DNA of 64,000 bases, taken from the IMG/VR virus record IMGVR_UViG_3300005918_000018; one strand, 5' to 3'. How positions within the stretch are numbered: the first letter of the stretch is position 1; every line of letters starts with the position of its first letter. This document shows, in pieces, positions 9,394 through 58,244 of the stretch. Made by a program: the position numbers and the translations under genes. Origin of the DNA: a virus (lineage: Duplodnaviria; Heunggongvirae; Uroviricota; Caudoviricetes). Under the pieces are notes generated by a model. That model saw nothing but the letters and a program-made list of their open reading frames with translations, made no database searches and was not told the origin of the DNA.

Positions 9394-9430
9394 CCTACTA
9401 CAACAACCCACAACCCAAAGAAACTAAGCT
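9394..9430 (-). promoter_or_regulatory. conserved phage promoter-like motif copy 1
   Basis: Plus-strand text CCTACTACAACAACCCACAA-N-AAACTAAGCT. The TAG stop of the GroEL gene lies inside the motif (GCTTAG). Confidence 0.55.
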
Positions 9431-10956
9431 ATAGTTATTCCAGCTTCAACTGTTAAAAGTGCAGATGCTACTGAAATTGCAGCAGAAATAACATTTTCTA
9501 CTACTAATGTTGGGTCTGCTATTATTGGATCAGTTCGTAAGTCCCTCACTTGATTCTGTAAGGCATCCCAACCAACCCACGGTTCATTAGGTAATGATTC
9601 GGCAATAAGTGTGGCAGATAACCCTAATCGTTGGGCATGAACATTAAGAGGTTGTAAGAGAGCTTTTTTTAGGACAGGGTGGTCTGTTTTCAGAGCAGCA
9701 AGCTGGTATGCTCGACCTCCCCCGGGAACTACTCCGCTTTTCAGAGCAGCTCTTGTTGAACCAAGAACATCCTCAACTCTTGCCCTACGTTCTTTCAGAG
9801 CAATTTCTGTTACACCACCGATTTTCAGAATAGCCATCCCTCCTGAGAGTTTAGCAATCCGCTTGAGAATCTTATCCTGATCGAAATCAGAGTCCGTTTC
9901 TTGATGTTTAAGTTCTTTAATTCTGGCCTGAGCAAATTCAAACTTGTCAGGGTATGTGGTAATGACTGTTTGATCTTTTTTAATGTTGGCCTGCCTGAAT
10001 GACCCAAACCATTCACTATCCCAGCTCCTGACATCATCTACCATCGGATCAACTAAATGAGCTCCGGCCATAGCAGCCACGTCTTTCAGGAATTCTTCTT
10101 GGTTATTGAAAGCTGGAGCATTGAAAGCACAGCATTCGATTATACTTTTGTTGTTATTCAGAAGCATTGTCCTGAAAGCATCTCCATCAATATCCCCAGC
10201 AAAAACCATCAGAGGGTTCTGAGGCCATTGACTGGCTACTTCCAGGATGTCTTTAATGTCGTCATATGTTCTGAGGGTTGATTTGACCACGGCAACAAGC
10301 GTACCTTCCATAATCCGTTCAGTCTGATCCCTGAGAAAACCTGTCCCTACAGGACCACATTCCAGCTCTGCTCCATCTTTGAATTCGAGTTTGGACTCAA
10401 CATGCTGACCATCTTCAATGACAATCATACCGTCTTGGCCGACAGCCATACACGCCTCAGACATTAACTTAGCAATTTCGTCATCCCCATTACAAGATAT
10501 CTTGGCAATCCCTTCAAGTTGTTTCTGGTTTTCAACAGGGGATGATATTTCTCTAATGGTTTTGAGGGTCTCCTGACCGGCAGCTTGTAGTTCTCTGGCT
10601 AATTGGATTGGAGAAACACCGGCCACAATCTGTTTATGGCCTTCAAGAAGGAGAGCAGCAGCCAAAAGAGCTACTGTTGTGGTGCCGTCTCCTACTTGTT
10701 CGTTGACTTTGAGGCAGGCTTCCTTGAGTATCTGGCAGCCCATATTCTCTAATTTGTTTTTTAGATGGATTTCTTGGGCAACTGTAACCCCATCTTTAGT
10801 GGCTAGAAGCCCCACCATTCGGTCGAGTAACGCTGTTCGACCTAATGGCCCATAAGTTGTTGTAATGGTTCGAGCTGTTTTCAGAGCACCTTGTAATATC
10901 TGATTACGTGCAGTCAAACCTATAGTAATATCTTTTGGCATTGAACCTCCAGACAT
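9424..10956 (-). CDS. groEL: chaperonin GroEL (Cpn60) homolog
   Basis: 510 aa. 'GDGTTTVALLAAALLLEG' and 'VTVAQEIHLKNKLENMGCQILKEA' match the GroEL equatorial domain, followed by a Gly-rich C-terminal region. Confidence 0.85.
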   Translation of the reverse strand: MSGGSMPKDITIGLTARNQILQGALKTARTITTTYGPLGRTALLDRMVGLLATKDGVTVAQEIHLKNKLENMGCQILKEACLKVNEQVGDGTTTVALLAAALLLEGHKQIVAGVSPIQLARELQAAGQETLKTIREISSPVENQKQLEGIAKISCNGDDEIAKLMSEACMAVGQDGMIVIEDGQHVESKLEFKDGAELECGPVGTGFLRDQTERIMEGTLVAVVKSTLRTYDDIKDILEVASQWPQNPLMVFAGDIDGDAFRTMLLNNNKSIIECCAFNAPAFNNQEEFLKDVAAMAGAHLVDPMVDDVRSWDSEWFGSFRQANIKKDQTVITTYPDKFEFAQARIKELKHQETDSDFDQDKILKRIAKLSGGMAILKIGGVTEIALKERRARVEDVLGSTRAALKSGVVPGGGRAYQLAALKTDHPVLKKALLQPLNVHAQRLGLSATLIAESLPNEPWVGWDALQNQVRDLRTDPIIADPTLVVENVISAAISVASALLTVEAGITIA

Positions 10957-11549
10957 TACTTTACCCTATCGAGCCACCGTTTTGCCAGCTTAGTAGCAGG
11001 GTCTTTTTTGTAAGGGTTTTTATCTTGATAGGTTTCTGGGGTACAGAGTAATTTTTTCTTACCGGCTTTAACCAAATGACCTTTAAATTCAATGTTGAAT
11101 TTAGCTGCTACTCTCTTAACGGCATCCAAGTTCTCTTTACCATCGTCCCACATCTGAATTAAATCTACAGATTTACCGTATTTCTCTAGGTATTTGGTAG
11201 CAATTATAGCCTTATGGACATGAGCATTGTTGGTGCGGTTCAGGTGAACACCATCAAAACGAATGCCTGCTTGTTTCAGGAGTTCCGGGATTCGATACCT
11301 GTTAGAGCCAACATCAGACCGGCCAGTAGCTAAAACTGTAATGATCTTGGGGTTTGAAACACTTTTCTTGGCTTGGCTGACGATCTGGCTGACCCACCAA
11401 GACCCATCAGGTTTATCTGGGACACACGGCCTTGCTAAGGAATCGTTATGAAGCCACCAGCTTCCTCGGACTCCTTCGGGAGGCCACCAATCAGGTTGAT
11501 CTGGACTCTTGAATAAAGTTTTGTCAAAGTCAAATATGTGAAATTCCAT
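10956..11549 (-). CDS. HAD-superfamily phosphatase
   Basis: 197 aa. N-terminal 'IFDFDKTLF' is the DxDxT motif I of HAD hydrolases. The start overlaps the groEL stop. Confidence 0.6.
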   Translation of the reverse strand: MEFHIFDFDKTLFKSPDQPDWWPPEGVRGSWWLHNDSLARPCVPDKPDGSWWVSQIVSQAKKSVSNPKIITVLATGRSDVGSNRYRIPELLKQAGIRFDGVHLNRTNNAHVHKAIIATKYLEKYGKSVDLIQMWDDGKENLDAVKRVAAKFNIEFKGHLVKAGKKKLLCTPETYQDKNPYKKDPATKLAKRWLDRVK

Positions 11550-11552
11550 TGT

Positions 11553-11732
11553 TTATTCCATAATTGAGGTTAAGAGGTCTCGGTACTGAGGGTACATTCT
11601 CACAAATGATACTACCCGCCGGATAATATTTGCATCCGGAGCACGCCGTCGGCAGCAACCAATCAACTGACGTTTAAAACGTAACAGTTCAGGATTCTGA
11701 TTAATAATTATTCGAAGGTCATCAGCTTTCAT
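11553..11732 (-). CDS. small hypothetical protein (unlisted ORF)
   Basis: 59 aa, MKADDLRIIINQNPELLRF.. Its stop overlaps the HAD start (ATGGAATAAACAATGG). Confidence 0.35.
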   Translation of the reverse strand: MKADDLRIIINQNPELLRFKRQLIGCCRRRAPDANIIRRVVSFVRMYPQYRDLLTSIME

Positions 11733-11780
11733 AAAATCTCCATTCTTATTAAGGGTGTTTATAAAGGTTTTACCGTTAAC

Positions 11781-11830
11781 GGCTTAGTTTTCAAAAGTTG
11801 TGGGTTGTTGTAGTAAGAAAGTAATTACTT
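11781..11830 (+). promoter_or_regulatory. conserved phage promoter-like motif copy 2
   Basis: GGCTTAGTTTTCAAAAGTTGTGGGTTGTTGTAGTAAGAAAGTAATTA, 23 nt upstream of the 11853 start. Confidence 0.6.
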
Positions 11831-11852
11831 TAACGAGTTATAAGGAGTTATA

Positions 11853-12173
11853 ATGAAATATAGATTTTTAAAAATAGTATCCCTCCCTACTGGTTATACT
11901 AATTATAGTAAGAAACAGTGGGAAGGTGTTATACAGGATATTATTAAAATTGATTCTCAATTACCAAAGCTGGATAAAAATGACTTAGAGAAAAACCAGG
12001 CTGTTATCGTAATGGTGAATGGGTTTCCTACATTTGCTAGAGTGCAGTTTGTAGGAGATGGTTGGGCTGCTGCAGTTACCTGTGATAATAAGACTATAAT
12101 CCCTCTAACATACTACCTTGACCGTTTCGGAAAGTATCCGAGTGGTTGGTGCTTGCATATACCTTTTGATTAA
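11853..12173 (+). CDS. hypothetical protein
   Basis: 106 aa. GGAG RBS. Confidence 0.5.
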   Translation: MKYRFLKIVSLPTGYTNYSKKQWEGVIQDIIKIDSQLPKLDKNDLEKNQAVIVMVNGFPTFARVQFVGDGWAAAVTCDNKTIIPLTYYLDRFGKYPSGWCLHIPFD

Positions 12174-12203
12174 GAAAGATTGAAAGTTTTTTAAAAAAAG
12201 AGT

Positions 12204-12232
12204 TGACACCCTGAAATTGTTCAGGTAAGGTC
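12204..12232 (+). promoter_or_regulatory. sigma70-like promoter (TTGACA-N17-TAAGGT)
   Basis: TTGACAccctgaaattgttcaggTAAGGT, upstream of a 30-aa ORF and the tRNA array. Confidence 0.3.
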
Positions 12233-12388
12233 TTCCTCACTTAGGGCAGTTTTTGCCCATTGGAGAAATTATGAGACGTTTACTATCCACATCTAGTAGC
12301 TTTACAAGCTCCCAGCTTACAAGCTGGTATTTATATTTGTCTGCACCGGAGGTGACAGGGTAACGTCTAAAACCATTATAAACTAACC

Positions 12389-12426
12389 CTTAAATCCTTC
12401 GGAGCAAACAAGCACCGAAGGATTTT
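12389..12426 (+). terminator. rho-independent terminator-like hairpin
   Basis: AATCCTTCGG..CCGAAGGATTTTT. Confidence 0.5.
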
Positions 12427-12516
12427 TACGTTTTATGTTCTTTGACAATTAAATACTCCCAAATAGTAATAAATCCACAGGATGGCTGGTTACCCAGCTG
12501 GCCATCTTGTTTATTC

Positions 12517-12600
12517 TGGGGTAGTGTCGGAACTGGTATACGAGCTGGTCTCAGAAATCAGTGCTGTAATGGCATGTGGGTTCGAATCCCACCTACCCCA
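12517..12600 (+). tRNA. tRNA-Leu(CAG), type II
   Basis: Acceptor GGGGTAG/CTACCCC. Anticodon stem CTGGT/ATCAG with loop CTCAGAA. T-loop GGGTTCGAATCCCAC. Confidence 0.7.
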
Positions 12601-12687
12601 ATTCAACGAAGATCAAACCACCTCTACGTGGTGTTGAGTATCAACTGGATTCTTAATTGAATTTAGGCTAAGAGTTTGATCAATTTG

Positions 12688-12773
12688 GACATGCGGTGAA
12701 GTTGGAGAGTCACGCCAGACTGTAAATCTGGTCCCTTCGGGGTGAGTAGGTTCGATTCCTACCATGTCCACCA
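12688..12773 (+). tRNA. tRNA-Tyr(GUA), type II
   Basis: Acceptor GGACATG/CATGTCC. Anticodon loop CTGTAAA. Variable arm TCCCTTCGGGGTGA. CCA encoded. Confidence 0.75.
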
Positions 12774-12777
12774 ATTT

Positions 12778-12863
12778 GGAGGTATAGACCACTATGGAGA
12801 TGGGACGGGTTGTAGCCCCGTTGCCTTATGGCCAGCAAGGTTCGATTCCTTGTACCTCCACCA
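12778..12863 (+). tRNA. tRNA, type II, atypical D/anticodon region (GUA-like)
   Basis: Acceptor GGAGGTA/TACCTCC plus CCA. T-arm CAAGG-TTCGATT-CCTTG. Anticodon loop TTGTAGC is only tentative. Confidence 0.45.
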
Positions 12864-12867
12864 TTTT

Positions 12868-12958
12868 GGGGAACGCATGGGAAGCAGAAGAGTCCCGTCA
12901 GGAATTGTACACCTGATCCTGTAAAGGTTAGTAGGTTTGAATCCTACCGTCCCCACCA
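12868..12958 (+). tRNA. tRNA-like, long-arm, unassigned
   Basis: T-arm GTAGG-TTTGAAT-CCTAC with 3' CGTCCCCACCA. The acceptor pairs imperfectly. Confidence 0.35.
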
Positions 12959-13162
12959 TTTTTTTAACATCCTGATTAAAGGGTTTGGTATATCAGGCAT
13001 TCCAAATTGCCGTCTGACAATATTCTTTAATCTTCTGGAACCTTTTTTATCAAGCCAGGTAAAGAACTCAATAGTTTCAACCCATTCATAATAATCTTTT
13101 TCAGTAAGCATAAGAACCTCCTTGTTAAGTAAACGAATAGGGATTGAGTAAATAAATAATTT

Positions 13163-16110: not shown

Positions 16111-16177
16111 TTTATTTTCCTTTGTTATTTCACAAAACCTATTTAAGGTTTCTATAATGTCTTTATTGGCTGAGTGT

Positions 16178-18417: not shown

Positions 18418-18464
18418 AGCTTAGTTTTCATTTTTTGGGGGTTGTTGGGGTAAGAAAGTAATTA
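18418..18464 (+). promoter_or_regulatory. conserved phage promoter-like motif copy 3 (variant) driving a tRNA
   Basis: AGCTTAGTTTTCATTTTTTGGGGGTTGTTGGGGTAAGAAAGTAATTA, immediately upstream of tRNA-Thr(UGU). Confidence 0.5.
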
Positions 18465-18465: not shown

Positions 18466-18541
<76 letters not shown>

Positions 18542-19981: not shown

Positions 19982-20494
19982 ATGAAAAGAGCCATCTACG
20001 CAGGTTCCTTTGACCCTATTACTAAAGGTCACATAGATATCATTCAAAGGGCTATGAAACTGTTCGACCAACTCATTGTCGTAGTTGCCCAGAACTCAGC
20101 CAAGAAAACAATGTTTAATGTGGATAAAAGAATAAGAATGATTAGAAAAGCAGTTTTAATGGACTGCTTAAAAGATGTAGGGGGGATTAAAGTAATGTCT
20201 CTCCCTGAAGGGGAAATGTTGGTTAATTTTGCAGCAAAACATAACGCCTGTGCTATGATTCGTGGTCTCAGGCCGGTTCAGGATTTTCCTGGAGAGTTTT
20301 CTCTGGCCAGTATTAACCGTCGGATAGCACCTTCAATTGAAACGGTTATGTTAATTACCGACCCCTCAGTATCTGAGGTTTCTTCCAGTATGGTAAAAGA
20401 ACTGGTAGCTTTAGGAGGCCCGTATGAACAATTTGTTCCAGAAAATGTGGCAACGGATTTACGGGTTTGGAAAGAATCCCAAGATGTCAAGTAA
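19982..20494 (+). CDS. coaD: phosphopantetheine adenylyltransferase
   Basis: 'AIYAGSFDPITKGHIDII' is the (H/T)xGH nucleotidyltransferase motif of PPAT. Length 170 aa is typical. Confidence 0.8.
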   Translation: MKRAIYAGSFDPITKGHIDIIQRAMKLFDQLIVVVAQNSAKKTMFNVDKRIRMIRKAVLMDCLKDVGGIKVMSLPEGEMLVNFAAKHNACAMIRGLRPVQDFPGEFSLASINRRIAPSIETVMLITDPSVSEVSSSMVKELVALGGPYEQFVPENVATDLRVWKESQDVK

Positions 20495-20918: not shown

Positions 20919-20995
20919 GCGTTCGTAGCTCAGATGGATAGAGTATCAGCCTCCGAAGTTGAGGGTCGAGGGTTCGAGCCCCTCCGGGCGTACCA
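20919..20995 (+). tRNA. tRNA-Arg(CCG)
   Basis: D-arm TAGCTCAGATGGATAGAGT. Anticodon stem TCAGC/GTTGA with loop CTCCGAA. T-arm GAGGG-TTCGAGC-CCCTC. CCA encoded. The acceptor has several G-U pairs. Confidence 0.6.
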
Positions 20996-21017
20996 TTTTA
21001 ACATAAGGAGAAATAAA

Positions 21018-21122
21018 ATGATTGAAAAACTTAAAAACACATTCAAAGAAGACCCATTCCAATTCTGCATGAGAGCTACTATTCTTGGTGCAATCATCAT
21101 TGGGATCATCTTTTACACATGA
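21018..21122 (+). CDS. small membrane protein (unlisted start)
   Basis: 34 aa, MIEKLKNTFKEDPFQFCMRATILGAIIIGIIFYT. AAGGAG RBS. Confidence 0.45.
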   Translation: MIEKLKNTFKEDPFQFCMRATILGAIIIGIIFYT

Positions 21123-22507: not shown

Positions 22508-22544
22508 CTTACTACAACAACCCACAGGTTGAAGAAACTAAGCC
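22508..22544 (-). promoter_or_regulatory. conserved phage promoter-like motif copy 4
   Basis: ~35-70 nt upstream of the MBL start. Confidence 0.6.
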
Positions 22545-22761
22545 ATAATAAAAAATACCCGCCAAGACCTAAATCTTGACGGGCATCGACACACCATTTG
22601 TAATTAAAATGGTTCGTCAGGGGGACGACACGGGATGTCGAACCTTCCACCACCCTATTTTTGTAGTGCCAGATTATAGGGAAACTGACGCCCTTTGTAA
22701 ATACAACTTGAGATTCAACAGTAAATAATTCATAAACAGACCAACTCCAACTTTTACTCAC

Positions 22762-23068
22762 GCGTTAGGGATACCACTAAAGAAAATGGGGACACTATGA
22801 TAACGGTTTCAACACAGGTTTTTCCAATTAGATCTCTTTGAGTATTAGCCTAATACTCTAAATCTCTAACTTTGATTTACGGTTGACCCGCTCCACGCTT
22901 CTCACTAACGTAGGTGTCCCCACCCACGGCTGTACCTCAGCTTCGGGACGATGTTTTATGGTAGCTAAACCACTTCATTTCATCGGGGTTCCCGCCCGAC
23001 TAGCCGGAGGCTAATCCAGCATGTCTCTAATCAGTCTTTCGACTGTTATTTGTTTGTCAATGAACGTC
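22762..23068 (-). ncRNA. ORF-free structured region between two promoter-motif copies (candidate sRNA/leader)
   Basis: ~310 nt with no ORF on either strand. GC-rich hairpins (e.g. CCTCAGCTTCGGGACG). Immediately downstream of motif copy 5. Confidence 0.3.
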
Positions 23069-23070
23069 TT

Positions 23071-23108
23071 TCTTACTACAACAACCCACGAGAATCCAAA
23101 ACTAAGCC
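23071..23108 (-). promoter_or_regulatory. conserved phage promoter-like motif copy 5
   Basis: TCTTACTACAACAACCCACGAGAATCCAAAACTAAGCC. Confidence 0.6.
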
Positions 23109-23115
23109 ATTTGTT

Positions 23116-25294: not shown

Positions 25295-25332
25295 TCTTAT
25301 ATCAACAACCCACAATATATGAAAACTAAGCC
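25295..25332 (-). promoter_or_regulatory. conserved phage promoter-like motif copy 6 (upstream of tmRNA)
   Basis: TTCTTATATCAACAACCCACAATATATGAAAACTAAGCC, ~25 nt upstream of the tmRNA 5' end. Confidence 0.6.
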
Positions 25333-28089: not shown

Positions 28090-28160
28090 AGCCGTATGAG
28101 GGAATCGAACCCTCCTTACATCCTTACCAAGGATGTGCCCTACCACTGGACTAATACGGC
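28090..28160 (-). tRNA. tRNA-Thr(GGU)
   Basis: Minus-strand read GCCGTATTAGTCCAGTGGTAGGGCACATCCTTGGTAAGGATG..GAGGGTTCGATTCCCTCATACGGC. Anticodon loop TTGGTAA. Confidence 0.7.
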
Positions 28161-28162
28161 AT

Positions 28163-28238
28163 TGGTACCGTCAAGCGGAGTCGAACCGCTGACACCCTGG
28201 CGACAAACCAGGTGCTCTGCCAACTGAGCTATGACGGT
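28163..28238 (-). tRNA. tRNA (anticodon loop TTTGTCG; UGU/Thr-like, position 37 atypical)
   Basis: Acceptor ACCGTCA/TGACGGT plus A-CCA. D-arm TAGCTCAGTTGGCAGAGCA. T-arm AGCGG-TTCGACT-CCGCT. Confidence 0.6.
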
Positions 28239-28252
28239 CAAAGGTTAGTTAC

Positions 28253-30223
28253 CTAACCAATGTAATATGTTAAAGAACGGTCTTTATTTTCTTTGAGGAC
28301 CAACTCAGTAAATTCTTCAATGGTGATAGACTTCACTGTTTTGTCATCACGTCTCCTCACGGAAACCGTGCGTTGATCTACTTCTCTTTTACCCACGATA
28401 AGCATGTAGGGTACTTTCATTTCGTGAGCCAGACGGATTTTGTGTTGGAGGCTCTCATCTTTGTCATCAACAGTAGCACGGATCATCTGGCTACGGAGGA
28501 TGTCTTTAACCTCATTTGCATAACCACCGAACTTTTCACTGCTGATCGGCAGAATACGAACCTGTTCCGGGGCTAACCAAGTCGGCATTGCTCCGGCATA
28601 ATGCTCAATGAGGTTTGAAACAAAGCGTTCCAGAGATCCCAGAATAGCTCTGTGGATCATGATAGGAGTTTGCTTAGTGCCATCCTCAGCAATGTAAGTC
28701 AAACCGAATCTCTCAGGCATTGAGAAATCAACCTGAATGGTTCCACACTGCCATGAACGTCCGATAGCATCCTTGAGATGGTAATCAATCTTAGGACCGT
28801 AGAAAGCACCGTCTCCTTCATTGATGGTGTAATCCATATCTTTCTTGTCCAAAGCAGTTTTCAAAGCAGCCTCGGCAGCTTCCCATTGCTCATCAGTACC
28901 AATGGAGTTATTAGGTCTGGTGGACAGTTCCACTTTGTAGTCCAGGAAACCAAAGGCACTGTAGGTACTATGCACCAAGTCAATCACACTGATGATTTCA
29001 TCATTCAACTGTGACGGAGTGCAATAGATATGAGCATCATCCTGAGTGAAGCCTCTTACACGAGTCAACCCGTGGAGTTCACCGGACTGTTCGTGACGAT
29101 GGACAAAACCAAACTCAGCCATCTTGACAGGCAGATCCCTGTAGGAATAATGATGGTCTTTGTAAACCAAAGTGCCACCAGGACAGTTCATAGGCTTGAC
29201 AGCATAGTCGATAATACGGTCAGAGGACATTTCATTGTCTTTCTCGTTGATTGTAGTGGCGTACATCTTGTCTTTGTAGTTATCCCAGTGACCACTTTTT
29301 TTCCACATCTCGTTATTCAACAAGGTTGCTGTTCTGATCTCCTCAAATCCACGTTTAAAGTTCATTTCCTTACAGAAGTTGAGGACGTTATCAAATATCA
29401 CAGTACCATTGCCGTGCCAGAACGGGAAACCTTGAGCTTCCTTATGGAAGCTGAATAAATCAAGTTCTTCACTTTTTCCCAGTGTTCGATGGTCTCTTTT
29501 CTTAGCTTCTACCAACATTGCAAGGTGGGCATCAAGTTCTTCTTTGTCAGAGAAAGCATACACATAGATACGTTGAAGCTGCTTTGGTGTACCCATCCAA
29601 TAAGCACCAGCAACTGATTTTATCTTGAAGCTGTCGGGGTTGATACAACCCGTAGATGGAACATGCGGTCCTTTACACCAGTCCGTGAAATCAGCCTGTT
29701 TATAGAAACTGGAAACATCACCAACACCAACTTTGTCAGTAACCATCTCCATTTTAAGAGGGGATTTCATCTTTTCCAAGAGTTCCAAACTCTCTTCTTT
29801 AGACAACTCGAAGCGGGTGACAGGGATGTTTTCTGCAATGATTCTTTTCATCTCAGCTTCGATTTTCTCGAAGTCCGAAGGGCTGAATTTATACTCTGTA
29901 TCAAAATCATAGTAAAATCCATCGTCAACAGGCGGTCCTGCTGCAAGATCAATATCAATATCACTATACAGTCTGCTTACAGCCTGAGCCAAGATATGTG
30001 ATGAAGTGTGGCGGGTAACGTCAAGTACTTCGGCAGCACTGACTTCTTCAAGGATCATGTCCTCTGTAATTGGGGTTGCCAGATCAATAATCTCACCGTT
30101 GACTTTGGCTACCAAGTCTTTTACACCAAGAATATTTCCGAGAGGTATTCCTACCTCTGCCACAAAATCTTCACTGTTCGGGTTTGAAAAAGATATTATA
30201 CATTTACTCATAGCATACTCCAT
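28253..30223 (-). CDS. thrS: threonine--tRNA ligase (ThrRS)
   Basis: 656 aa. N-terminal TGS-like region. 'HTSSHILAQAV' is the editing-domain HxxxH. The class II core 'FVHRHEQSGELHGLTRVRGFTQDDAHIYC' is motif 2/3. C-terminal anticodon-binding region. Confidence 0.85.
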   Translation of the reverse strand: MEYAMSKCIISFSNPNSEDFVAEVGIPLGNILGVKDLVAKVNGEIIDLATPITEDMILEEVSAAEVLDVTRHTSSHILAQAVSRLYSDIDIDLAAGPPVDDGFYYDFDTEYKFSPSDFEKIEAEMKRIIAENIPVTRFELSKEESLELLEKMKSPLKMEMVTDKVGVGDVSSFYKQADFTDWCKGPHVPSTGCINPDSFKIKSVAGAYWMGTPKQLQRIYVYAFSDKEELDAHLAMLVEAKKRDHRTLGKSEELDLFSFHKEAQGFPFWHGNGTVIFDNVLNFCKEMNFKRGFEEIRTATLLNNEMWKKSGHWDNYKDKMYATTINEKDNEMSSDRIIDYAVKPMNCPGGTLVYKDHHYSYRDLPVKMAEFGFVHRHEQSGELHGLTRVRGFTQDDAHIYCTPSQLNDEIISVIDLVHSTYSAFGFLDYKVELSTRPNNSIGTDEQWEAAEAALKTALDKKDMDYTINEGDGAFYGPKIDYHLKDAIGRSWQCGTIQVDFSMPERFGLTYIAEDGTKQTPIMIHRAILGSLERFVSNLIEHYAGAMPTWLAPEQVRILPISSEKFGGYANEVKDILRSQMIRATVDDKDESLQHKIRLAHEMKVPYMLIVGKREVDQRTVSVRRRDDKTVKSITIEEFTELVLKENKDRSLTYYIG

Positions 30224-30361
30224 TCATTTTGCGTTGTACTAAACAATAGTAAATCTTGCACTACAATTATATTTACCCCAAACTCGTCAAGAGCACTCAC
30301 TCCTGCTTCGGGATAGTAACGACCTACTTGTAAGATTTCAGTCTTCATTGAATTCACCTTT

Positions 30362-30437
30362 AAGTAAAAAATGGAGCCAACAGCCAGAATCGAACTGGCC
30401 ACCTACTGATTACGAATCAGTTGCTCTACCAGATGAG
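30362..30437 (-). tRNA. tRNA-Thr(CGU)
   Basis: Minus-strand read GCCGACATAGCTCATCTGGTAGAGCAACTGATTCGTAATCAGT..CCAGTTCGATTCTGGCTGTTGGCTCCA. Confidence 0.7.
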
Positions 30438-30456
30438 CTATGTCGGCTTACCCTAG

Positions 30457-34954: not shown

Positions 34955-34992
34955 GCTTATCCCAACAACCCACAAGAAATCAAAACTAAGCC
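34955..34992 (-). promoter_or_regulatory. conserved phage promoter-like motif copy 7 (divergent pair, minus)
   Basis: Upstream of the CobT-like gene start (34916). Confidence 0.6.
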
Positions 34993-35013: not shown

Positions 35014-35055
35014 AGCTTAGTTTTGAAAAGTTGTGGGTTGTTGAAGTGTAAAAAG
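35014..35055 (+). promoter_or_regulatory. conserved phage promoter-like motif copy 8 (divergent pair, plus)
   Basis: AGCTTAGTTTTGAAAAGTTGTGGGTTGTTGAAGTGTAAAAAG, 43 nt upstream of the CobS-like start. Confidence 0.6.
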
Positions 35056-36318: not shown

Positions 36319-37107
36319 ATGACAACTAAACTCACAGCAAAAGATTTTAAAGACCCGCTTATGCTTGTTATGTCTGAATTGACAGAAACTAAAGCGGATT
36401 CTCCTATAGAATTTGAAACAACTTTAACCCCGATTTGTAAACTGATGGATATTACTATGGATCAGTTTGGAAATGATCCAAGTTCGGGTGCCCCGAAAGT
36501 AAGAAAATGGATTCAGTGGGCTTTTAAAGATTTGAAAAAAAGTGGTTATACAAAAACAACCGGTCGTGGCCAGTGGGCCTTGACAGATGCAGGAGTGCTT
36601 CTTATGACAACACAAGTCCCAGAAAATAAAACTTCAGATAAAACTGATGCTATTTCAACCAGTACTTTGTTTAGCACTCTCCAACCTGAGAATGCTTACC
36701 ATATGGATGACTACATCCGAACGCTGGCTGCTCAAAATACAAAATGTTTCAGGTATTATGCACAACAAAGCCCTATCTGTGGAGCTTGCCCTATCAATAC
36801 GGCATGTGCTAATGCTATGATGTCTGAGCTAGTAGGGCTTGCCAAGAAATTACATACTCAGGATGTCACAAGAGCAGCTCGGGAAAAAGCAAAAGATAAA
36901 GCCGATCAATCAGATTCTCATACCAGCCCTGCCCCTACAAAAATGCCCAAAGGAGGTGCTGACCCTGTATTGATTCATCAAACTTCTGTTTGTGGTGTCT
37001 GTGGAAAACCTATCCTAAAAGGGACTTATGCTTGCTGGATTACGGCCTCCGTTGGAGAAAGTGCTGGGTTATATCATCCTGAATGTTATGAAGAAAATGA
37101 TAAGTAG
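36319..37107 (+). CDS. hypothetical protein with C-terminal Cys cluster
   Basis: 262 aa. The stop of the upstream gene abuts this ATG. Confidence 0.5.
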   Translation: MTTKLTAKDFKDPLMLVMSELTETKADSPIEFETTLTPICKLMDITMDQFGNDPSSGAPKVRKWIQWAFKDLKKSGYTKTTGRGQWALTDAGVLLMTTQVPENKTSDKTDAISTSTLFSTLQPENAYHMDDYIRTLAAQNTKCFRYYAQQSPICGACPINTACANAMMSELVGLAKKLHTQDVTRAAREKAKDKADQSDSHTSPAPTKMPKGGADPVLIHQTSVCGVCGKPILKGTYACWITASVGESAGLYHPECYEENDK

Positions 37108-37153: not shown

Positions 37154-37636
37154 ATGGATGTAAAACAATTGGAAGATGTAGTAGCAAACTTAAAAGGTTT
37201 GTCTAATGATATCCAGAACACCTTGAATGATAATTCAACCCCTCTTGCTACTGTGGTGGACATTGGGATTGAACTGGACAGGGTTCTCAAACTAACCGCA
37301 AAAACATTGGAACCCGTTAAAGTTATCCTACGCCAGAAAGCCTTGGATATGAATAACCAACAATCAGGTACTGTTGAACTGAGATCTGGACTCTGCACGG
37401 TGCAGATACCCTCTCCAACGATTGCCGTTCGGAAAAGGTATGATATGCAGCCCTTGAAAGATTTGATAGGTCCGATGTTTTCAGTGATCTTCCGTGAGAT
37501 TACGACGTTCAAACCTCAGAAGGAGTTTGAACTAGAAGTCAGTCAGTGTGATTTAGTTGTACAAACGGATATTATGAAAGCTGTTGAACTGAAAGACAAT
37601 AGTCCACGGGTTTACTTCAAAGGAGTAATAACATGA
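37154..37636 (+). CDS. hypothetical protein
   Basis: 160 aa. Confidence 0.5.
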   Translation: MDVKQLEDVVANLKGLSNDIQNTLNDNSTPLATVVDIGIELDRVLKLTAKTLEPVKVILRQKALDMNNQQSGTVELRSGLCTVQIPSPTIAVRKRYDMQPLKDLIGPMFSVIFREITTFKPQKEFELEVSQCDLVVQTDIMKAVELKDNSPRVYFKGVIT

Positions 37637-38115
37637 CAATTTATGAAATGCTATTGATGGCCATCCTTGGTCACTTCATTGGAGACTATCTCTTTCAACC
37701 AAAATGGGTGGCTCACTATAAAACCAACAGTGATTGGTGTGGTTTCTGGACCTGTGTTTTACACTGTATTCTTTATTCTCTGATTATCTCCATTATGATA
37801 GGTCTAGGGAAAGTCATCAATCCTTGGGTGTTTGGGATGGTATTCCTGAGTCATTACCCCATTGATCGTTACAGCCTTGCCCAGAAATGGTTGGATATAA
37901 CAGGTGGCCGTAATTTCATGAATGATTATGATGAGGCTGTGGAGTATCTTAATAAGCAACTGCTTGAGAATGGTGAGGAACAACAGGCAGAGTTAAAAAC
38001 CCCGGTCATTGTCACATCGTTCGGATGTATCGTTTATACCATCACAGATAACACCCTCCACATTGTCTTAATGTGGGTCGGAATCTGTCTTCTTAATTTT
38101 TATAGCTTAGTTTAA
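37633..38115 (+). CDS. integral membrane protein
   Basis: 160 aa, 4 predicted TM helices. ATGA overlap. Confidence 0.5.
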   Translation: MTIYEMLLMAILGHFIGDYLFQPKWVAHYKTNSDWCGFWTCVLHCILYSLIISIMIGLGKVINPWVFGMVFLSHYPIDRYSLAQKWLDITGGRNFMNDYDEAVEYLNKQLLENGEEQQAELKTPVIVTSFGCIVYTITDNTLHIVLMWVGICLLNFYSLV

Positions 38116-39336: not shown

Positions 39337-39379
39337 GGCTTAGTTTCTCTAAGTCATGGGTTGTTGATGTAAGAAAGAG
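39337..39379 (+). promoter_or_regulatory. conserved phage promoter-like motif copy 9
   Basis: GGCTTAGTTTCTCTAAGTCATGGGTTGTTGATGTAAGAAAGAG, 11 nt upstream of the rtcB ATG. Confidence 0.6.
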
Positions 39380-51323: not shown

Positions 51324-51361
51324 TTGTAATACAACAACCCACGAAAATCAAAAACTAAGCC
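51324..51361 (-). promoter_or_regulatory. conserved phage promoter-like motif copy 10
   Basis: Upstream of the HNH gene on the minus strand. Confidence 0.55.
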
Positions 51362-51401: not shown

Positions 51402-51776
51402 ATGAAAGGAAATGTCATGCCTAATCCAAATATTCAATGTTCAGCTTGTGGGAAACCAATCTACAGGTCTCCTCGTCAGATAGCCAAATCAAAAACAGGT
51501 CTTTTCTACTGTTGTAAAGCTCATCAGAAGAAATGGCGTTTCTACAAGATGACAGCATATCGGAAATTGGCTTTCGATAATTTCCCTCATAAATGTGATG
51601 AATGTGGTTATGATTTCATGGAGATCCTTGAAGTTCATCATGTGGATTTCAACCACAGTAACGACCAGCTCGACAATCTTCGGATCTTATGCCCGAACTG
51701 TCATCGGGAAATCCATTGGTACGGACGTGGAGAAGCTGCTATGGAAGCAGCTTATGAACCTGACTGGGAAGATTGA
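51402..51776 (+). CDS. HNH endonuclease
   Basis: 'HHVDFNHSNDQLDNLRILCPNCH'. Confidence 0.8.
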   Translation: MKGNVMPNPNIQCSACGKPIYRSPRQIAKSKTGLFYCCKAHQKKWRFYKMTAYRKLAFDNFPHKCDECGYDFMEILEVHHVDFNHSNDQLDNLRILCPNCHREIHWYGRGEAAMEAAYEPDWED

Positions 51777-53959: not shown

Positions 53960-54526
53960 TTACTCAAAGAGAGCTGGCTCCAATCCTTCAATTTCAACCT
54001 TGGTTCCATTACCTATCTGAATAGCTTCTCGAAGGGCAGATGCTCTCCGTGCTGCTGTCTTGGCCAATAGCTGAGAGTCAGTAACCGTAATCTGCTTCTC
54101 AGCATATTCAGTACCTTCTTCCCGACTACGTTTCAGACTCTCACCAAAATCATAACGATCCATTTTCTTAGGTTTGGAAAGATCACGCCATTTCTTTTCT
54201 ACACGTCCAGCACCACCGACCAATTTAATAGCCATAGTTAAAGAGATATCTTGACCTCCAACTGACACTTTTACTTTTTGATTGTAGAGAGCCTGAGCAG
54301 CTTGCACCTGAGCAAAATTAGCTTCTGCTTCACGAAAAATTGACATTGCAGCTACAGGGCTGGGTTTTTCCTCATCTTCAAACTTCCAAATGGAATCATC
54401 AAAGATATGTTCAGCCGTTTCTTTAGCAAAAGCCAGTTCTTTCAAGGCTCTCATCAATTGGTATCCAGTAACTTCCATAGTCAGTACTCCTCTTAAACTT
54501 AATAAAACCCTGACAGGCTTTAACAC
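53960..54526 (-). CDS. coiled-coil hypothetical protein (partner of SPFH gene)
   Basis: 188 aa, predicted alpha-helical. Immediately downstream of the SPFH gene. Confidence 0.4.
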   Translation of the reverse strand: MLKPVRVLLSLRGVLTMEVTGYQLMRALKELAFAKETAEHIFDDSIWKFEDEEKPSPVAAMSIFREAEANFAQVQAAQALYNQKVKVSVGGQDISLTMAIKLVGGAGRVEKKWRDLSKPKKMDRYDFGESLKRSREEGTEYAEKQITVTDSQLLAKTAARRASALREAIQIGNGTKVEIEGLEPALFE

Positions 54527-54552
54527 CTGTCAGGTGATTAAATCACGTTCAG

Positions 54553-56547
54553 TTAAACTTTCGGGGCATCCATCATCGATCTCATCCGTTTAGTCATCGT
54601 TTTTTTAACCTTGGGGATAACATCATCACCGTTGGCCATGCCCGTCAGGGTTGCAAAGAGTCCGTCCATGGCACTCCCACTGCCACCACCGGTTACGAGA
54701 ACCTTCGGCATGATGTTCATACCATTCTCAGACAAGGAACGAGCCACGTTGACTACTGTAGTTCCCTGCTGACCAATGGCCTCCACTTGCTTCTGATAAC
54801 CCTCAGCAAGACCAAGAGCAGTAGCTCTGACTTCGGCAGCTTTAGCAGCACCCGTCATTTCGATGTATGTTGCTTCACCATCAGCTTCGTTTTTACGAGC
54901 ATTGGCTTGGTTCTCAGCAATTTCCATACCGAGTTGGGAACTAACCAGATCTTTCTGCTTGTCAGCCTGAGCATTGGATTTCTCCATCTTGACACGTTGG
55001 TTCTGAGACTCAGTCTGTTTCTTGTAAGTTTCGATTTCCTGATTGGCAATTTCACGTTCGGTCAGGACTTCTACCAACTGTGCTGGCAGGATAACATCCT
55101 GAATATAGACACCACGGACTTCAACTTCATACTGGCCTAAATGCCTCACGATATGGTCGTTGGCTTCTGTTTGGATGGTTTGACGATCCTCAATGAACTT
55201 GACAGCAGCCATTGTTTGCAGCTTATCCCGGAAATGGTTACCAACGGCAGCTTGCAAAACTTCATTGATCAGATTTGCCATAGTTCCGACCATCGAAATA
55301 ACCTGTGGGGCTTTCGTGTCAGGAACATGAATCTGCACTTGAAGGTCGATAGTAAATACAAAACCTTCCTTGGATTTAGCACCAATCGAACTGAGCTGTT
55401 TGTCAAGGTCATGAGCGTCAGAAGTAGCATTTGCCCAGTTCAGAGTCAGGATGCTGGTAGGCACCTTTTCAACCTGATAACAACGGGGATTTAAAGCATA
55501 CTTACCTGTACGAAGAGGTTCTTGCCAAATACCACGGTGACCAGGTCGGACAAGAGAGCCAAATTTGAACTCAGCACCAGAGATGTCTTCTGTAACCAAA
55601 CCGACATAGGCTTTGACCACGGCAACTTGACCCTGTTGGATTACCAACATTGGAGCTTTTTCTACTCTAACGAGGAAGGGGTTCAGTGCATATGCACCAT
55701 ACATCAACGGATCATGCTGGAGTCCCATTGTCCCGCCTTCGTCGAGGAACTTCTGGTAATCCTGATAGTTGTTATGTTTGTCGTTCTGGCTGCCGAGCAA
55801 TAGCTCAATCATAGCAGCATCAGAAATTTTATCTTTGCTTGTTTCTATGTCCCCGATGTCTTTGAATCCATTCATACGGGATGCAATATCACCAGCAGGA
55901 AGTGGAGGTCCTTCAAGAGTTGTCACGATACCAATGATATCCTTAACTCCGTTGTTGGAGGAATCTGGTTCGATGACAGTCAACTTGAAACAACTGGGGG
56001 AAAGTCCAAATCGTTCTGAGCCTCGAACTGCTTTTTTCACGTCTTCGGACATTGGAAGCCCGAATACTTTGTCAGAAGTAACGACAAGGAAAGCAACAGG
56101 ATGGATTGGGACGATAGTTCCTGGAGATAGCACAGGACGTTGGATACCTTTTTGACCACCGTTTTCAATGAATACCTTCAAGTCACGATAGTCACCGAAG
56201 ATTTCTTTGTAAGCAGCAGATTTAGCACCGATAGGCAAAGGGTCTCCAATCTGAGATTGAACCACACCAATTTGGCCTGGAGGTACTTGCACCCACGGAT
56301 GTTTTTCAACGGAATAAATTGGCCAGAGCATGAATCTCAAGCCAGGCATCAACAAATCAGCTTGATAACCGGCTTCACCATTGAAGGCTATCGGGTTATC
56401 CCCACTCAGTTGTTTAAAGGCAAGGTTTTTGGATACAAGTCCAACCTCGTCCTCATCAATAAAGTGGAACGACTTGATCACCATTCCGGTGATCACGCCT
56501 GCTATAACAGCAAGCACAGCTACAACAAAAAGCACAAGACCAGTCAT
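54553..56547 (-). CDS. SPFH/band-7 (flotillin-like) membrane protein
   Basis: N-terminal TM 'LVLFVVAVLAVIAGVITGMVI'. Band-7 core. Long C-terminal flotillin-like coiled coil (EIANQEIETYKKQTESQNQR...). Confidence 0.65.
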   Translation of the reverse strand: MTGLVLFVVAVLAVIAGVITGMVIKSFHFIDEDEVGLVSKNLAFKQLSGDNPIAFNGEAGYQADLLMPGLRFMLWPIYSVEKHPWVQVPPGQIGVVQSQIGDPLPIGAKSAAYKEIFGDYRDLKVFIENGGQKGIQRPVLSPGTIVPIHPVAFLVVTSDKVFGLPMSEDVKKAVRGSERFGLSPSCFKLTVIEPDSSNNGVKDIIGIVTTLEGPPLPAGDIASRMNGFKDIGDIETSKDKISDAAMIELLLGSQNDKHNNYQDYQKFLDEGGTMGLQHDPLMYGAYALNPFLVRVEKAPMLVIQQGQVAVVKAYVGLVTEDISGAEFKFGSLVRPGHRGIWQEPLRTGKYALNPRCYQVEKVPTSILTLNWANATSDAHDLDKQLSSIGAKSKEGFVFTIDLQVQIHVPDTKAPQVISMVGTMANLINEVLQAAVGNHFRDKLQTMAAVKFIEDRQTIQTEANDHIVRHLGQYEVEVRGVYIQDVILPAQLVEVLTEREIANQEIETYKKQTESQNQRVKMEKSNAQADKQKDLVSSQLGMEIAENQANARKNEADGEATYIEMTGAAKAAEVRATALGLAEGYQKQVEAIGQQGTTVVNVARSLSENGMNIMPKVLVTGGGSGSAMDGLFATLTGMANGDDVIPKVKKTMTKRMRSMMDAPKV

Positions 56548-56589
56548 TACGTTTCTCCTTACAGAGGGTTAAATGGTAGCACTGAAAAT

Positions 56590-57330
56590 ATTCAAAAATC
56601 AATATTCGTTAAATTGTTATCTCCTTAGTAGGAGGTGTTGTTTATGTTACCCTTATTTACTGACGAAGAATTTGAAAAAGCTAAGTCCAGAGAAAAACTC
56701 CCACTGAAATGTAAGCATTGCGGGAAAACTTTTTATCAAACTAAGAATCAAATTCAAGTTGGGTATTCCCCCAAGTATCATACAAAATGGGAATTCTGCT
56801 CTCCTTCCTGTATGGGTTCTTATCGGTATAAAGGTCACCGTATTGATTTTAACTGTGAACAATGTAGGAAATTATCCAGTAAGTTAAAATCTGCATATAA
56901 AAGAACAAAACATCATTTCTGTTCAAAATCTTGTTCAGCTACTTATCATAACCAAAGAAAACAAACAGGAACTCGGAGATCAAAATTTGAAGTCTGGGTT
57001 GAAAAACAACTGGTCTCCTTGTATCCAAATCTTGAGTTCCATTTTAACAAGAAAGACACCATTCAATCAGAACTAGATATCTACATCCCCTCTCTCAAGC
57101 TGGCTTTTGAGATAAATGGGGTTTTTCATTATGAACCTATCTTTGGACAAGATAAACTTGATAAGATTCAAAAAAATGAAAAAGGTAAATTTGCTGCCTG
57201 TATTGAAAAGAACATCAGTCTTTGTATTATTGACGTTAGTACTTTAAGCTACTTCAAGCCTAAAAAAGCTCAGAAGTTCCTTGACATAATTACTAATATC
57301 ATTGATCAAGCTATCAGCCTGGATTCATAA
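56590..57330 (+). repeat. dispersed paralogous cassette B
   Basis: Leader AATATTCGTTAAATTGTTATCTCCTTAGTAGGAGGTGTTG plus CDS, ~80% nt identity to cassettes A and C. Confidence 0.7.
56635..57330 (+). CDS. Zn-ribbon + putative nuclease-like protein, paralog B
   Basis: 231 aa. Same architecture as 27345..28040. Confidence 0.6.
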   Translation: MLFMLPLFTDEEFEKAKSREKLPLKCKHCGKTFYQTKNQIQVGYSPKYHTKWEFCSPSCMGSYRYKGHRIDFNCEQCRKLSSKLKSAYKRTKHHFCSKSCSATYHNQRKQTGTRRSKFEVWVEKQLVSLYPNLEFHFNKKDTIQSELDIYIPSLKLAFEINGVFHYEPIFGQDKLDKIQKNEKGKFAACIEKNISLCIIDVSTLSYFKPKKAQKFLDIITNIIDQAISLDS

Positions 57331-57377
57331 TCCAGTTTCCATCCAATGCCTCGTGGAGGCTGCTTGACATCATTGGA

Positions 57378-57450
57378 CAGCGGTGGCCGGATTCGAACCG
57401 ACGACCTGATGGGTATGAGCCACCCGAGCTGTCCTCTGCTCTACACCGCA
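57378..57450 (-). tRNA. tRNA-Met(CAU) copy 3 (no encoded CCA)
   Basis: Minus-strand read GCGGTGTAGAGCAGAGGACAGCTCGGGTGGCTCATACCCATC..GTCGGTTCGAATCCGGCCACCGCT. Confidence 0.65.
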
Positions 57451-57463
57451 AAAAAAGTTTTTC

Positions 57464-57499
57464 TCAATACAACAACCCACGACTTTTCAAAACTAAGCC
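57464..57499 (-). promoter_or_regulatory. conserved phage promoter-like motif copy 11
   Basis: Contains the TAG stop of the guanylate kinase gene (GGCTTAG). Sits upstream of tRNA-Met on the minus strand. Confidence 0.55.
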
Positions 57500-58053
57500 G
57501 TGTTTTTTATTATTCGGTATAAATCTTGTACTGTTTTTTCAATATCAACATTAATCAACTGATAGTCATATGTCTCAGCATCTTTGATTTCTTCTAATGC
57601 TCGGTTTAATCGTATTTGAATCACATCTTCAGTATCAGAACCTCTACCCCGAAGACGTTTTTCCATCTCATCCTTAGAAGGAGGTAACAAAAAGATTGTA
57701 GTAGCTTCAGGGAGTTTTGCTTTGACAGTTTCTTTTCCCTGAGTATCAATTACAAGGATTGCTCCGTCTCCGCAATCCCAAACAGTCTCCACATCAGACA
57801 TTAAAGTCCCATAAGATTGACCGTGGACTGTGGCATACTCAAGGAATTTGTTTGACTTAACTAAGATATTAAAAGAAAATTCTGTTAAAAACTGATAGTC
57901 AATACCATCTAATTCACCTTTACGAGGTTTTCTAGTGGTACAGGTTTTAACTTGTCTCCAGCCAGCATTAGAATATCTTTGGAGAAACCGATCCACTACG
58001 GTTGTTTTTCCAACTCCTGACGGTGCTGACAATATAACTAAATCTTTCGGCAT
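57493..58053 (-). CDS. gmk: guanylate kinase
   Basis: P-loop 'LSAPSGVGKTTV'. 'TTRKPRKGELDGIDYQF' is the GMP-binding signature. Confidence 0.8.
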   Translation of the reverse strand: MPKDLVILSAPSGVGKTTVVDRFLQRYSNAGWRQVKTCTTRKPRKGELDGIDYQFLTEFSFNILVKSNKFLEYATVHGQSYGTLMSDVETVWDCGDGAILVIDTQGKETVKAKLPEATTIFLLPPSKDEMEKRLRGRGSDTEDVIQIRLNRALEEIKDAETYDYQLINVDIEKTVQDLYRIIKNTA

Positions 58054-58125
58054 TCAATTTATCCAATCTTATTCAGATGGCTGATTTTCGTAACGATGGC
58101 TGAGGTCGAATCAAGTTCATCCATA

Positions 58126-58194
58126 TCAGGGATGAGCTTCAATCCATAGGATTGCTGCTTCTAATGATGTTGATTTAAACGGGTTAATAATCAT
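58126..58194 (-). CDS. very small ORF (22 aa) downstream of motif copy 12
   Basis: MIINPFKSTSLEAAILWIEAHP. A spacing-consistent ATG follows GTAAGAAAGAGAACCATT. Low confidence. Confidence 0.2.
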   Translation of the reverse strand: MIINPFKSTSLEAAILWIEAHP

Positions 58195-58205
58195 AATGGT
58201 TCTCT

Positions 58206-58244
58206 TTCTTACCTCAACAACCCACAAAAAAGAGAAACTAAGCC
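58206..58244 (-). promoter_or_regulatory. conserved phage promoter-like motif copy 12
   Basis: TTCTTACCTCAACAACCCACAAAAAAGAGAAACTAAGCC. Confidence 0.6.

Follow-up and report, generated by a model that had tools for sequence, protein, structure and literature searches.

A bipartite motif repeated across a 64,000-nt stretch of an uncultivated tailed-phage genome (IMG/VR record IMGVR_UViG_3300005918_000018; hereafter, the window) is very probably a promoter. We further consider it probable that the motif serves one transcription class of this ~400-kb phage as its core promoter, read by means of a phage-encoded sigma factor resembling those of the extracytoplasmic function (ECF) group. These assignments draw on sequence analysis of ~170 of the 402 kb. 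The ENA contig ERZ27315476:k141_864834 (402,136 bp) encodes one of the window’s proteins, and the window corresponds to roughly bases 3016–67015 of it. Another contig, Ga0075116_10000007 (116 kb; hereafter, the continuing contig), begins exactly at the end of the window, is identical in the overlap, and adds ~100 kb of readable genome.

The motif, GCTTAGTTT-N9-GTGGGTTGTTG, occurs 12 times in the window (Table 1), compared with 0.01 occurrences in dinucleotide-preserving shuffles of the same DNA. Ten copies are exact and two carry a single mismatch over the 20 specified bases; the window search returned no sites with two or three mismatches. All 12 were found where an earlier note, prepared from the window sequence alone, had reported them. 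That note had described a ~40-bp element with a spacing of 7–10 nt. The variable spacing is superseded, since nine nucleotides separate the blocks in every copy (equivalent to N7 before TTGTGGG). The two blocks were upheld, and the proposed ‘AGTAAGAAAG’ tail turned out to be only semi-conserved and partly the Shine-Dalgarno (SD) sequence of the downstream gene. The core thus spans 29 bp, which we number from the G of GCTTAG as position 1. We also detected one half-site, which is probably not functional.

To extend this set, we scanned metagenome contigs with the 18 most conserved bases, which yielded 86 stretches. Together, the window and the related metagenomic loci contained 144 exact copies in 524 kb. 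About 137 of these are genuine: they share flank features outside the searched bases. The other ~7 lack these features and reside inside long open reading frames (ORFs) of unrelated contigs, a number that equals the chance expectation. A logo built from 121 distinct copies begins with an A/T-rich stretch at positions -14 to -3, followed by T(-1) and G(0), GCTTAGTTT at 1–9, a pyrimidine at 10, a preferred A at 15, T17, T18, G19 and T20, and GGGTTGTTG at 21–29. The 3′ part comprises A31, G32, T33 and A34, with purines at 36–38. Searching 50,697 deposited phage records for the motif revealed chance partial matches only, and a literature search with the two blocks returned primer noise and no paper naming the motif.

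Placement and conservation of the motif

Several lines of evidence support the earlier note’s promoter proposal: the intergenic position of the copies, their co-orientation with genes, divergent pairs, conservation of the blocks but not of the spacer, and the limits set by downstream tRNAs and SD sequences. Frequent copies in coding regions and a random orientation had been named as the outcomes that would speak against a promoter. Instead, the copies are intergenic or overlap a stop codon, in DNA that is ~89% coding, and all 12 in the window and 30 of the 31 that the continuing contig carries point toward the next same-strand feature. The copies of the latter contig stand at the front of gene runs that share their strand. 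Back-to-back pairs occupy four divergent junctions, three on the continuing contig and one in the window, the latter between the divergent CobT-like and CobS-like genes, as previously noted.

The same picture emerged across all loci. Using crude gene calls, a same-strand feature followed 116 copies and an opposite-strand feature followed 13. As many as 86 copies were free of any ORF overlap, although ~90% of the DNA lies under ORFs, and 13 overlapped an ORF by exactly 6 nt, such that the TAG of the motif serves as the stop codon. The latter arrangement had been noticed for groEL and gmk, and both cases were confirmed (Table 1). Upstream of genes, words of the motif ranked as the most enriched 7-mers (10–12 fold); the other enriched words were SD-like, with no competing motif.

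Conservation followed the two blocks. We aligned seven orthologous intergenic regions from relatives that are ~77–89% identical, and both blocks were unchanged, whereas the spacer and flanks had accumulated substitutions and indels. Relatives have retained the motif even at the rtcB and tRNA-Thr junctions, where their upstream gene is a different one.

Inspection of the individual copies refined the description of their surroundings. Co-orientation with the next gene held throughout the window; the claim that every copy is intergenic is qualified by copy 4, which falls within a 94-aa ORF with a GTG start accepted by the gene caller. This ORF is doubtful because a terminator with a 15-bp stem (22587–22554) sits directly upstream of the copy. 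A start codon or RNA end had been reported close to every copy, and no start codon is found near copy 5. Among the listed targets, rtcB, the metallo-beta-lactamase (MBL) fold hydrolase, the transfer-messenger RNA (tmRNA), tRNA-Thr(UGU), and tRNA-Met were corroborated, and the HNH gene is doubtful, as the annotated gene (51416–51776) points away from copy 10.

Table 1 Motif copies in the window, their downstream features, and the candidate specificity factors
Feature	Position	Strand	Associated feature
Copy 1	9401–9429	-	groEL stop is the motif’s TAG (9426–9424); 43-aa hydrophobic ORF, ATG 9382 (motif position 48)
Copy 2	11782–11810	+	106-aa ORF downstream, ATG 11853 (position 72)
Copy 3 (1 mismatch)	18419–18447	+	tRNA-Thr(UGU) 5′ end 18466 (position 48)
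Copy 4	22515–22543	-	MBL-fold hydrolase, ATG 22473 (position 71)
Copy 5	23079–23107	-	No nearby start codon; heads ~520-nt unit ending at terminator 22587–22554
Copy 6	25303–25331	-	tmRNA 5′ end 25268 (position 64)
Copy 7 (half of back-to-back divergent pair)	34963–34991	-	VWA/CobT-like gene, ATG 34916 (position 76)
Copy 8 (half of back-to-back divergent pair)	35015–35043	+	AAA/CobS-like gene, ATG 35098 (position 84)
Copy 9 (1 mismatch)	39338–39366	+	RtcB, ATG 39390 (position 53)
Copy 10	51332–51360	-	23-codon mini-ORF, ATG 51313 (position 48), strong SD; 265-aa gene from 51097
Copy 11	57470–57498	-	gmk stop is the motif’s TAG (57495–57493); tRNA-Met 5′ end 57451 (position 48)
Copy 12 (directly after tRNA-Gly)	58215–58243	-	22-codon mini-ORF, ATG 58194 (position 50); gmk ATG 58053
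Half-site (GCTTAGTTT without second block)	38105–38113	+	3′ end of gene 37633–38115
Candidate specificity factor (360 aa)	1372–2454	+	Sigma2-like and sigma4-like parts, N-terminal extension
Second, weaker candidate (345-aa helical protein)	113–1150	-	Divergent from 1372–2454

Predicted transcription start and candidate specificity factor

The features immediately downstream constrain where transcription could begin. The 5′ ends of tRNAs fall at motif positions 40, 41, 48, and 49, and that of the tmRNA falls at 64. An SD sequence and an ATG follow within 75 nt in 72 distinct copies; in 15 of these the SD sequence has position 34 as its first base, in seven position 36, and the ATGs cluster at positions 45–50. 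Since SD sequences begin at 34–36 and tRNAs from 40, the start must be located at or before approximately position 34. This leaves no room downstream for a separate promoter, and hence the motif itself would be the core promoter. We place the start, on these positional grounds, probably at or near the conserved purines A31/G32 (positions ~30–34), that is, ~2–5 nt past the second block. Such transcripts would have very short leaders, with the SD sequence beginning at position 34–36, and tRNA precursors would carry leaders of 6–17 nt.

With this start, TGT-GGGTTG would fall at roughly -15 to -7 and GGCTTAGTTT at roughly -33 to -23. The (T)GGCTTAGTTT block would then serve as a -35-like element and TGTGGGTTGTTG as a -10-like element containing GTT, as in ECF-type -10 elements, with the AT-rich stretch upstream. 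The geometry fits contacts by sigma domains 4 and 2 (~16–18 bp between hexamers), read either as GCTTAG-N17-TTGTTG or as GGCTT-N17-GGTT. The predicted start would also agree with the initiation of sigma-dependent promoters 5–9 nt past the -10 element.

Several established signal classes did not fit the motif. The housekeeping sigma70 promoter (TTGACA-N17-TATAAT) was rejected because the -10 place is occupied by an invariant GGGTTGTTG with no TAnnnT and neither A(-11) nor T(-7), in agreement with the earlier note’s statement that the motif bears no likeness to sigma70 elements. The sigma54 promoter (TGGCAC-N5-TTGCW, GG-N10-GC) was likewise rejected; TGGC does occur at -1 to 2, but positions 12–13 are unconserved. 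T4 MotA-type middle promoters share only GCTT, and the motif has no TAnnnT at the needed distance of 11–13 bp downstream. A mobile repeat, such as a miniature inverted-repeat transposable element or the remnant of an insertion sequence (IS), is contradicted by the lack of inverted-repeat structure, the conservation of two blocks only, and the orientation tied to the downstream gene. Separate sigma70-like sites were not more frequent in the window than in shuffles, and the strong ones lay mostly within genes. Plausible intergenic ones precede the tRNA-Leu at 16129 and occupy the divergent region 61843–61903. Of the two separate sigma70 elements proposed before, the one at 61846 thus has candidates nearby, and our scan found none at 12204.

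For the specificity factor, attention had been drawn to two sigma-like proteins encoded at 113–2454. We could support this for 1372–2454, a remote relative of sigma70/ECF factors; the signal for 113–1150 was weaker. Their divergent arrangement is kept in relatives. Similarity searches suggest that the 1372–2454 protein is a divergent, remote relative of two-domain ECF-like sigma factors with an N-terminal extension. That it is the very factor reading the motif is a tentative assignment; that some phage-encoded factor does so is the likelier claim, and the one we favor.

A word-indexed search recovered six relatives of the 1372–2454 protein, and an exhaustive profile search recovered 367 cluster representatives at E ≤ 1e-3. 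Sampled members were unnamed or labeled ‘hypothetical protein’ and were encoded on contigs of up to ~440 kb. When 83 family members were scanned singly against Pfam, they matched Sigma70_r4_2 (22), Sigma70_r4 (13), GerE (5), Sigma70_r2 (2), and Sigma70_ECF (1). Compared with solved structures, the family profile matched SigA best (E 0.0027); next came FliA, SigW, and further chains of sigma region 4, with non-sigma helix-turn-helix proteins (ParB, GerE) interspersed among them. Sigma region 4 was thus recognizable in the family both in the 22 + 13 Pfam matches among the 83 members and in structure matches with E-values down to 0.0027. Using hhalign, the profile aligned with residues 4–182 of E. 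coli RpoE (75% probability, E 2.4e-5), pairing DHIQ.../...RSA.tDiRd with RpoE regions 2.1–2.4; Sigma70_r2 itself was matched in just 2 of the 83 homologues. In the AlphaFold model, the predicted local distance difference test (pLDDT) score reaches 72–88 in the C-terminal part, and the top ~50 Foldseek matches in the PDB are almost all sigma factors, those to ECF sigmas over the full length being non-significant. Using E. coli RpoD as a phmmer query against all ORFs of the loci retrieved nothing.

The second protein, 113–1150, is predicted to be helical (pLDDT 59). Its Foldseek list consists mostly of sigma factors and TFIIB, at E-values of at least 1.3, none of them significant; it could possibly act together with 1372–2454. 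In addition, the CobS operon encodes a 262-aa protein with an Mrr_N domain (36319–37107, + strand) that matches the sigma-like family profile (E 6e-10), and two members of the sigma-like family also match Mrr_N. The winged-helix part at the N-terminus may account for this match.

The resulting scheme would be a cascade, in which host sigma70 would first express the phage sigma factor, and the host RNA polymerase core combined with this ECF-like sigma would then read the promoter. A sigma70-like site, TTGACT-17-TAAAGT, is found in the 200-bp intergenic region between 113–1150 and 1372–2454, where the count of such sites is no better than chance, and this region contains no copy of the motif. 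The cascade is therefore only a suggestion.

A number of points weigh against the explanation that we favor. Promoter function is proposed from sequence, and the pairing of the 1372–2454 protein with the motif is putative. Searching both candidate proteins against Pfam and PHROGs gave no match, and for 1372–2454 the mean pLDDT of 52 and Foldseek E-values of at least 0.06 make the structural evidence remote. At loci encoding sigma homologues that are 31–64% identical (L110, L111, and L113–L118), we found neither the motif nor an evident replacement; these loci mostly match a motif-poor part of the window, its initial 10 kb, in which a single copy occurs. Nothing clear, motif or replacement, was seen at a locus with a CobS homologue (L002) either. 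In one relative with a sigma homologue, the groEL junction lacks the motif and the sigma region-4 helix differs, a single data point. The ~170 kb read out of 402 kb leave room for a phage RNA polymerase, and copies of the motif precede bacterial genes that have no homologues in the phage loci, making a cell-encoded factor possible.

Alternative readers of the motif

The bacterial copies bear directly on this last point. A scan of one genome per species returned 14 stretches, about the chance level overall. The exact motif was found seven times in the Myxococcota metagenome-assembled genome (MAG) CAXXHC01 (loci L089, L093, L094, L099, and L100) and twice in the Myxococcota MAG CAXXPQ01 (L096 and L098), compared with ~1e-4 copies expected per genome. 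Among the seven distinct MAG copies, position 10 is a pyrimidine in six, A15 is present in five, and T33 in all seven; they also have a conserved TTTTCCG of their own just upstream. The copies lie 60–90 nt upstream of genes for winged-helix proteins (PF22977), of a resolvase gene, and of small ORFs, within islands that contain integrases, a VapE-like primase, type I restriction-modification genes, an RHS toxin, a ribonuclease, and IS elements. We detected no homologues of the island genes in the phage loci, and no phage-like sigma gene in the 8-kb MAG stretches. DNA-methylase and Lcl_C domains were common to both sets of loci, but these are widespread and uninformative.

These copies thus allow two readings, a cell-encoded factor or resident elements that respond to a phage factor. 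According to the former, a host-encoded alternative sigma factor of the ECF type would read the promoter, exploited by the phage and by host islands alike, and the sigma-like proteins of the phage would act otherwise. We regard this as unlikely, even though the motif in the islands is exact, has the same spacing, shares A15 and T33, and stands before genes without homologues in the phage loci, at loci devoid of a sigma-like gene. The MAG copies are few and all in mobile DNA, with none in housekeeping or stress regulons; the phage has a conserved pair of sigma-like genes of its own; sharp promoters in high copy number are typical of phage-owned specificity; and a host link between the phage and these MAGs is hypothetical. 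The latter reading could make the island copies infection sensors, that is, satellites or defense islands that carry the phage promoter and are switched on by the phage sigma. We consider this a rather improbable idea; it would make a Myxococcota lineage the host of this phage clade, and the island copies offer a possible route to host assignment. As a lead only, the tag encoded by the phage tmRNA, ANTELAIAA, resembles that of Myxococcus, which ends in ELALAA.

The remaining alternatives concern the mode of recognition. The blocks might bind a phage activator or repressor that steers the holoenzyme of host sigma70 toward an embedded, weak core promoter, in the manner of sigma appropriation by T4 MotA/AsiA. 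Indeed, GCTT is common to the first block and the T4 MotA box TGCTTtA (PMC2988021), and TGGCT (-1 to 3) and TG (18–19) loosely resemble a -35 element and the TG of an extended -10. Yet the invariant GGGTTG at -10 offers no TAnnnT and lacks the A(-11) and T(-7) that sigma70 needs, and the two blocks show equal invariance at a rigid spacing, as would be the case for direct contacts by sigma2 and sigma4, leaving appropriation improbable. Still more improbable is a promoter for a phage RNA polymerase, either single-subunit (T7/N4-like) or multisubunit (as in jumbo phages), whose gene would belong to the unread remainder of the genome, with transcripts perhaps starting at the GGG of the second block and sharing a common GGGUUGUUG leader. 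Promoters of T7-like single-subunit polymerases consist of ~20–23 contiguous conserved bp, from -17 to +6. The near-perfect conservation, with no copies at two to three mismatches, recalls such promoters, and ~170 of 402 kb were inspected. However, the conservation here is split by a free spacer of 7–9 nt and preceded by an AT-rich upstream stretch, and the motif is also unlike the short AT-rich motifs of jumbo-phage polymerases (PMC7598289). No polymerase-like gene was found among the scanned proteins of the window and the continuing contig, with no systematic search of the ~170 kb made, and the motif occurs in bacterial islands too.

Lastly, the motif could act as a signal in RNA processing or in leaders, or as a hotspot of cassette-shuffling recombination comparable to the promoter/stem-loop cassettes of T4-type phages. 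In line with this, it bounds modules whose upstream neighbors differ, as at the rtcB and tRNA-Thr junctions, and many homing-endonuclease genes are near. Folding six copies as RNA rejected a structural signal, as it yielded differing weak structures (z-scores of -1.1 to +1.7) and none that was consistent across these copies. Moreover, at divergent back-to-back pairs there is no transcript from upstream that could be processed, orientation strictly follows the downstream gene, and any recombination at repeated promoters would come as a side effect rather than as an alternative to promoter function. We consider this the least probable of the explanations weighed here.

Comparison with known phage promoters and genomic context

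Recognition by a phage-encoded sigma factor, the reading that we prefer, would place the motif in a known kind of signal, the phage sigma-dependent promoters; its consensus, the length and sharpness of its blocks, its copy number, and its set of targets would set it apart. ECF (group 4) sigma factors read promoters such as the SigH/SigR-type GGAA(C/T)-N16-18-GTT. The likeness extends to the two-domain (sigma2 + sigma4) type of protein, the alignment of the 1372–2454 family profile with RpoE, conserved elements at rigid spacing, and the GTT of the -10-like block. By contrast, the AAC core that ECF -35 elements have is absent from the GGCTTAGTTT block, and the candidate protein has ~360 aa with an extra N-terminal domain; we identified no anti-sigma partner for 1372–2454. 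The Bacillus phage SPO1 has middle promoters read by gp28 (-35 AGGAGA, -10 TTTnTTT) and late promoters read by gp33/34 (-35 CGTTAGA, -10 GATATT). SPO1 is comparable, on our reading, as a large phage with sigma factors of its own, bipartite phage-specific -35/-10 elements, and a temporal cascade that departs from the host sigma, but there is no sequence likeness beyond a chance TTAG, and the host here is not a Firmicute.

The closest parallels in design are Salmonella phage 7-11, whose late promoters (GTAAtg-N16-aCTA) are read by the phage sigma gp47, and phiEco32, whose gp36 promoters read tAATGTAtA (PMC8948821). In both, a divergent phage-encoded protein of the sigma70 family redirects the host core polymerase to a consensus found only in the phage, as we propose here. 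The 7-11 promoter, too, is bipartite, has fixed spacing, is unlike TTGACA/TATAAT, and starts transcription a few bases past the last element, as predicted for the present motif. The differences are nonetheless substantial. The consensus is entirely different, and the blocks are much longer (9 + 11 nt); dozens of copies occur per genome, compared with 6–8; and the targets are tRNAs, the tmRNA, and auxiliary genes, whereas theirs are late structural genes only. The putative sigma comes from another family, one that is unannotated and has an N-terminal extension, and is known from its sequence. T4 middle promoters combine a MotA box (TGCTTtA) at -30 with a sigma70 -10 (PMC2988021, PMC6755090). 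They share with the motif a phage-specific upstream element in place of the -35 hexamer, as well as GCTT; in contrast, the motif has no sigma70-type -10, its invariant second block is unlike TATAAT, and the spacing differs.

If these assignments hold, the motif provides a map of transcription units for an uncultivated clade of ~400-kb phages, with 43 promoters in the ~170 kb read. At least 367 clusters of ‘hypothetical’ proteins on contigs of huge-phage size would gain a probable function as divergent ECF-like sigma factors, and the combination of one sigma candidate with one sharp consensus could serve as an orthogonal expression part. Overall, the motif precedes tRNAs, the tmRNA, a suppressor tRNA in relatives, RNA repair genes, a DNA ligase, a PARP-like gene, and a Cas3/Csy1 operon. 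This suggests that the translation cargo, the RNA repair genes, and the CRISPR-Cas operon are expressed as one co-regulated class.

Neither megablast nor protein searches revealed close relatives of this phage among deposited phages. The window encodes 33 tRNA genes and a tmRNA, together with threonyl-tRNA synthetase (ThrRS), GroEL, RtcB, an SPFH protein, and other auxiliary genes. Its proteins recur in the metagenome Ga0208769, named as a source of a ~528-kb ‘huge phage’ from Ace Lake, Antarctica (PMC7416419). That phage was described with CRISPR-Cas of type I-C (PMC7416419), whereas here we observed Csy1 and a Cas3-like gene: on the continuing contig, Cas3-like and Csy1 genes of a type I-F-like system are found directly behind a copy of the motif (L043, 211–5248). 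The same contig also encodes a PARP-like protein, an NAD-dependent DNA ligase, and a protein kinase.

Several of the units behind window copies are short. Copies 10 and 12 are directly followed, on the - strand, by the mini-ORFs 51313–51242 (23 codons) and 58194–58126 (22 codons), both with strong SD sequences. The latter is conserved at the nucleotide level in a relative (L067), and both may be leader peptides. The ~520-nt unit behind copy 5 (22550–23070, - strand) contains no convincing ORF and has G+C-rich helices, a T-arm-like GGTTCGA, and an internal near-consensus sigma70-like promoter, TTTACA-17-TATAAT, at 22701–22673. Rfam returned only a sub-threshold terminator-like match for it, and it may be a new phage non-coding RNA. 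The motif of copy 5 and ~40 nt downstream of it (23044–23109) recur at 94% identity ~3.4 kb past the end of the window (L065, 4411–4476; L048, 3369–3434). There, the repeat precedes a tRNA that ARAGORN left untyped (‘tRNA-???’), with other tRNA genes nearby.

The tRNA complement shows further peculiarities. The ThrRS gene (28253–30223) is flanked by three tRNA-Thr genes with anticodons GGU, UGU, and CGU (28090–30447), and further tRNA-Thr genes lie at 18466 and 19001. In two related contigs (L024, ~4303; L026, ~3293), a tRNA with the anticodon CUA, an amber suppressor that ARAGORN labels ‘tRNA-Pyl’, starts 40–41 nt into the motif. TAG is the stop codon of 9 of the 51 window genes, and TAG may be recoded in this phage clade during some stage of infection.

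The distant, high-GC relative L002, whose CobS is 63% identical, has no copy of the motif and repeats a ~43-nt element of its own, CCGTTyCC-N5-7-GGwCTACTC, at 683–725, 20423–20465, and 20976–21018. A 3.6-kb contig labeled as a Bacteroidales MAG (L097, JAQUQD010000128.1) carries the motif and a methyltransferase 58–62% identical to a phage gene behind the motif; this contig is a mis-binned fragment of a related phage. Finally, the ribonucleotide reductase encoded upstream of the sigma-like pair has 1688 aa in one relative (L111, 600–5666), including an intein and LAGLIDADG domains, and 690 aa in the phage studied here.

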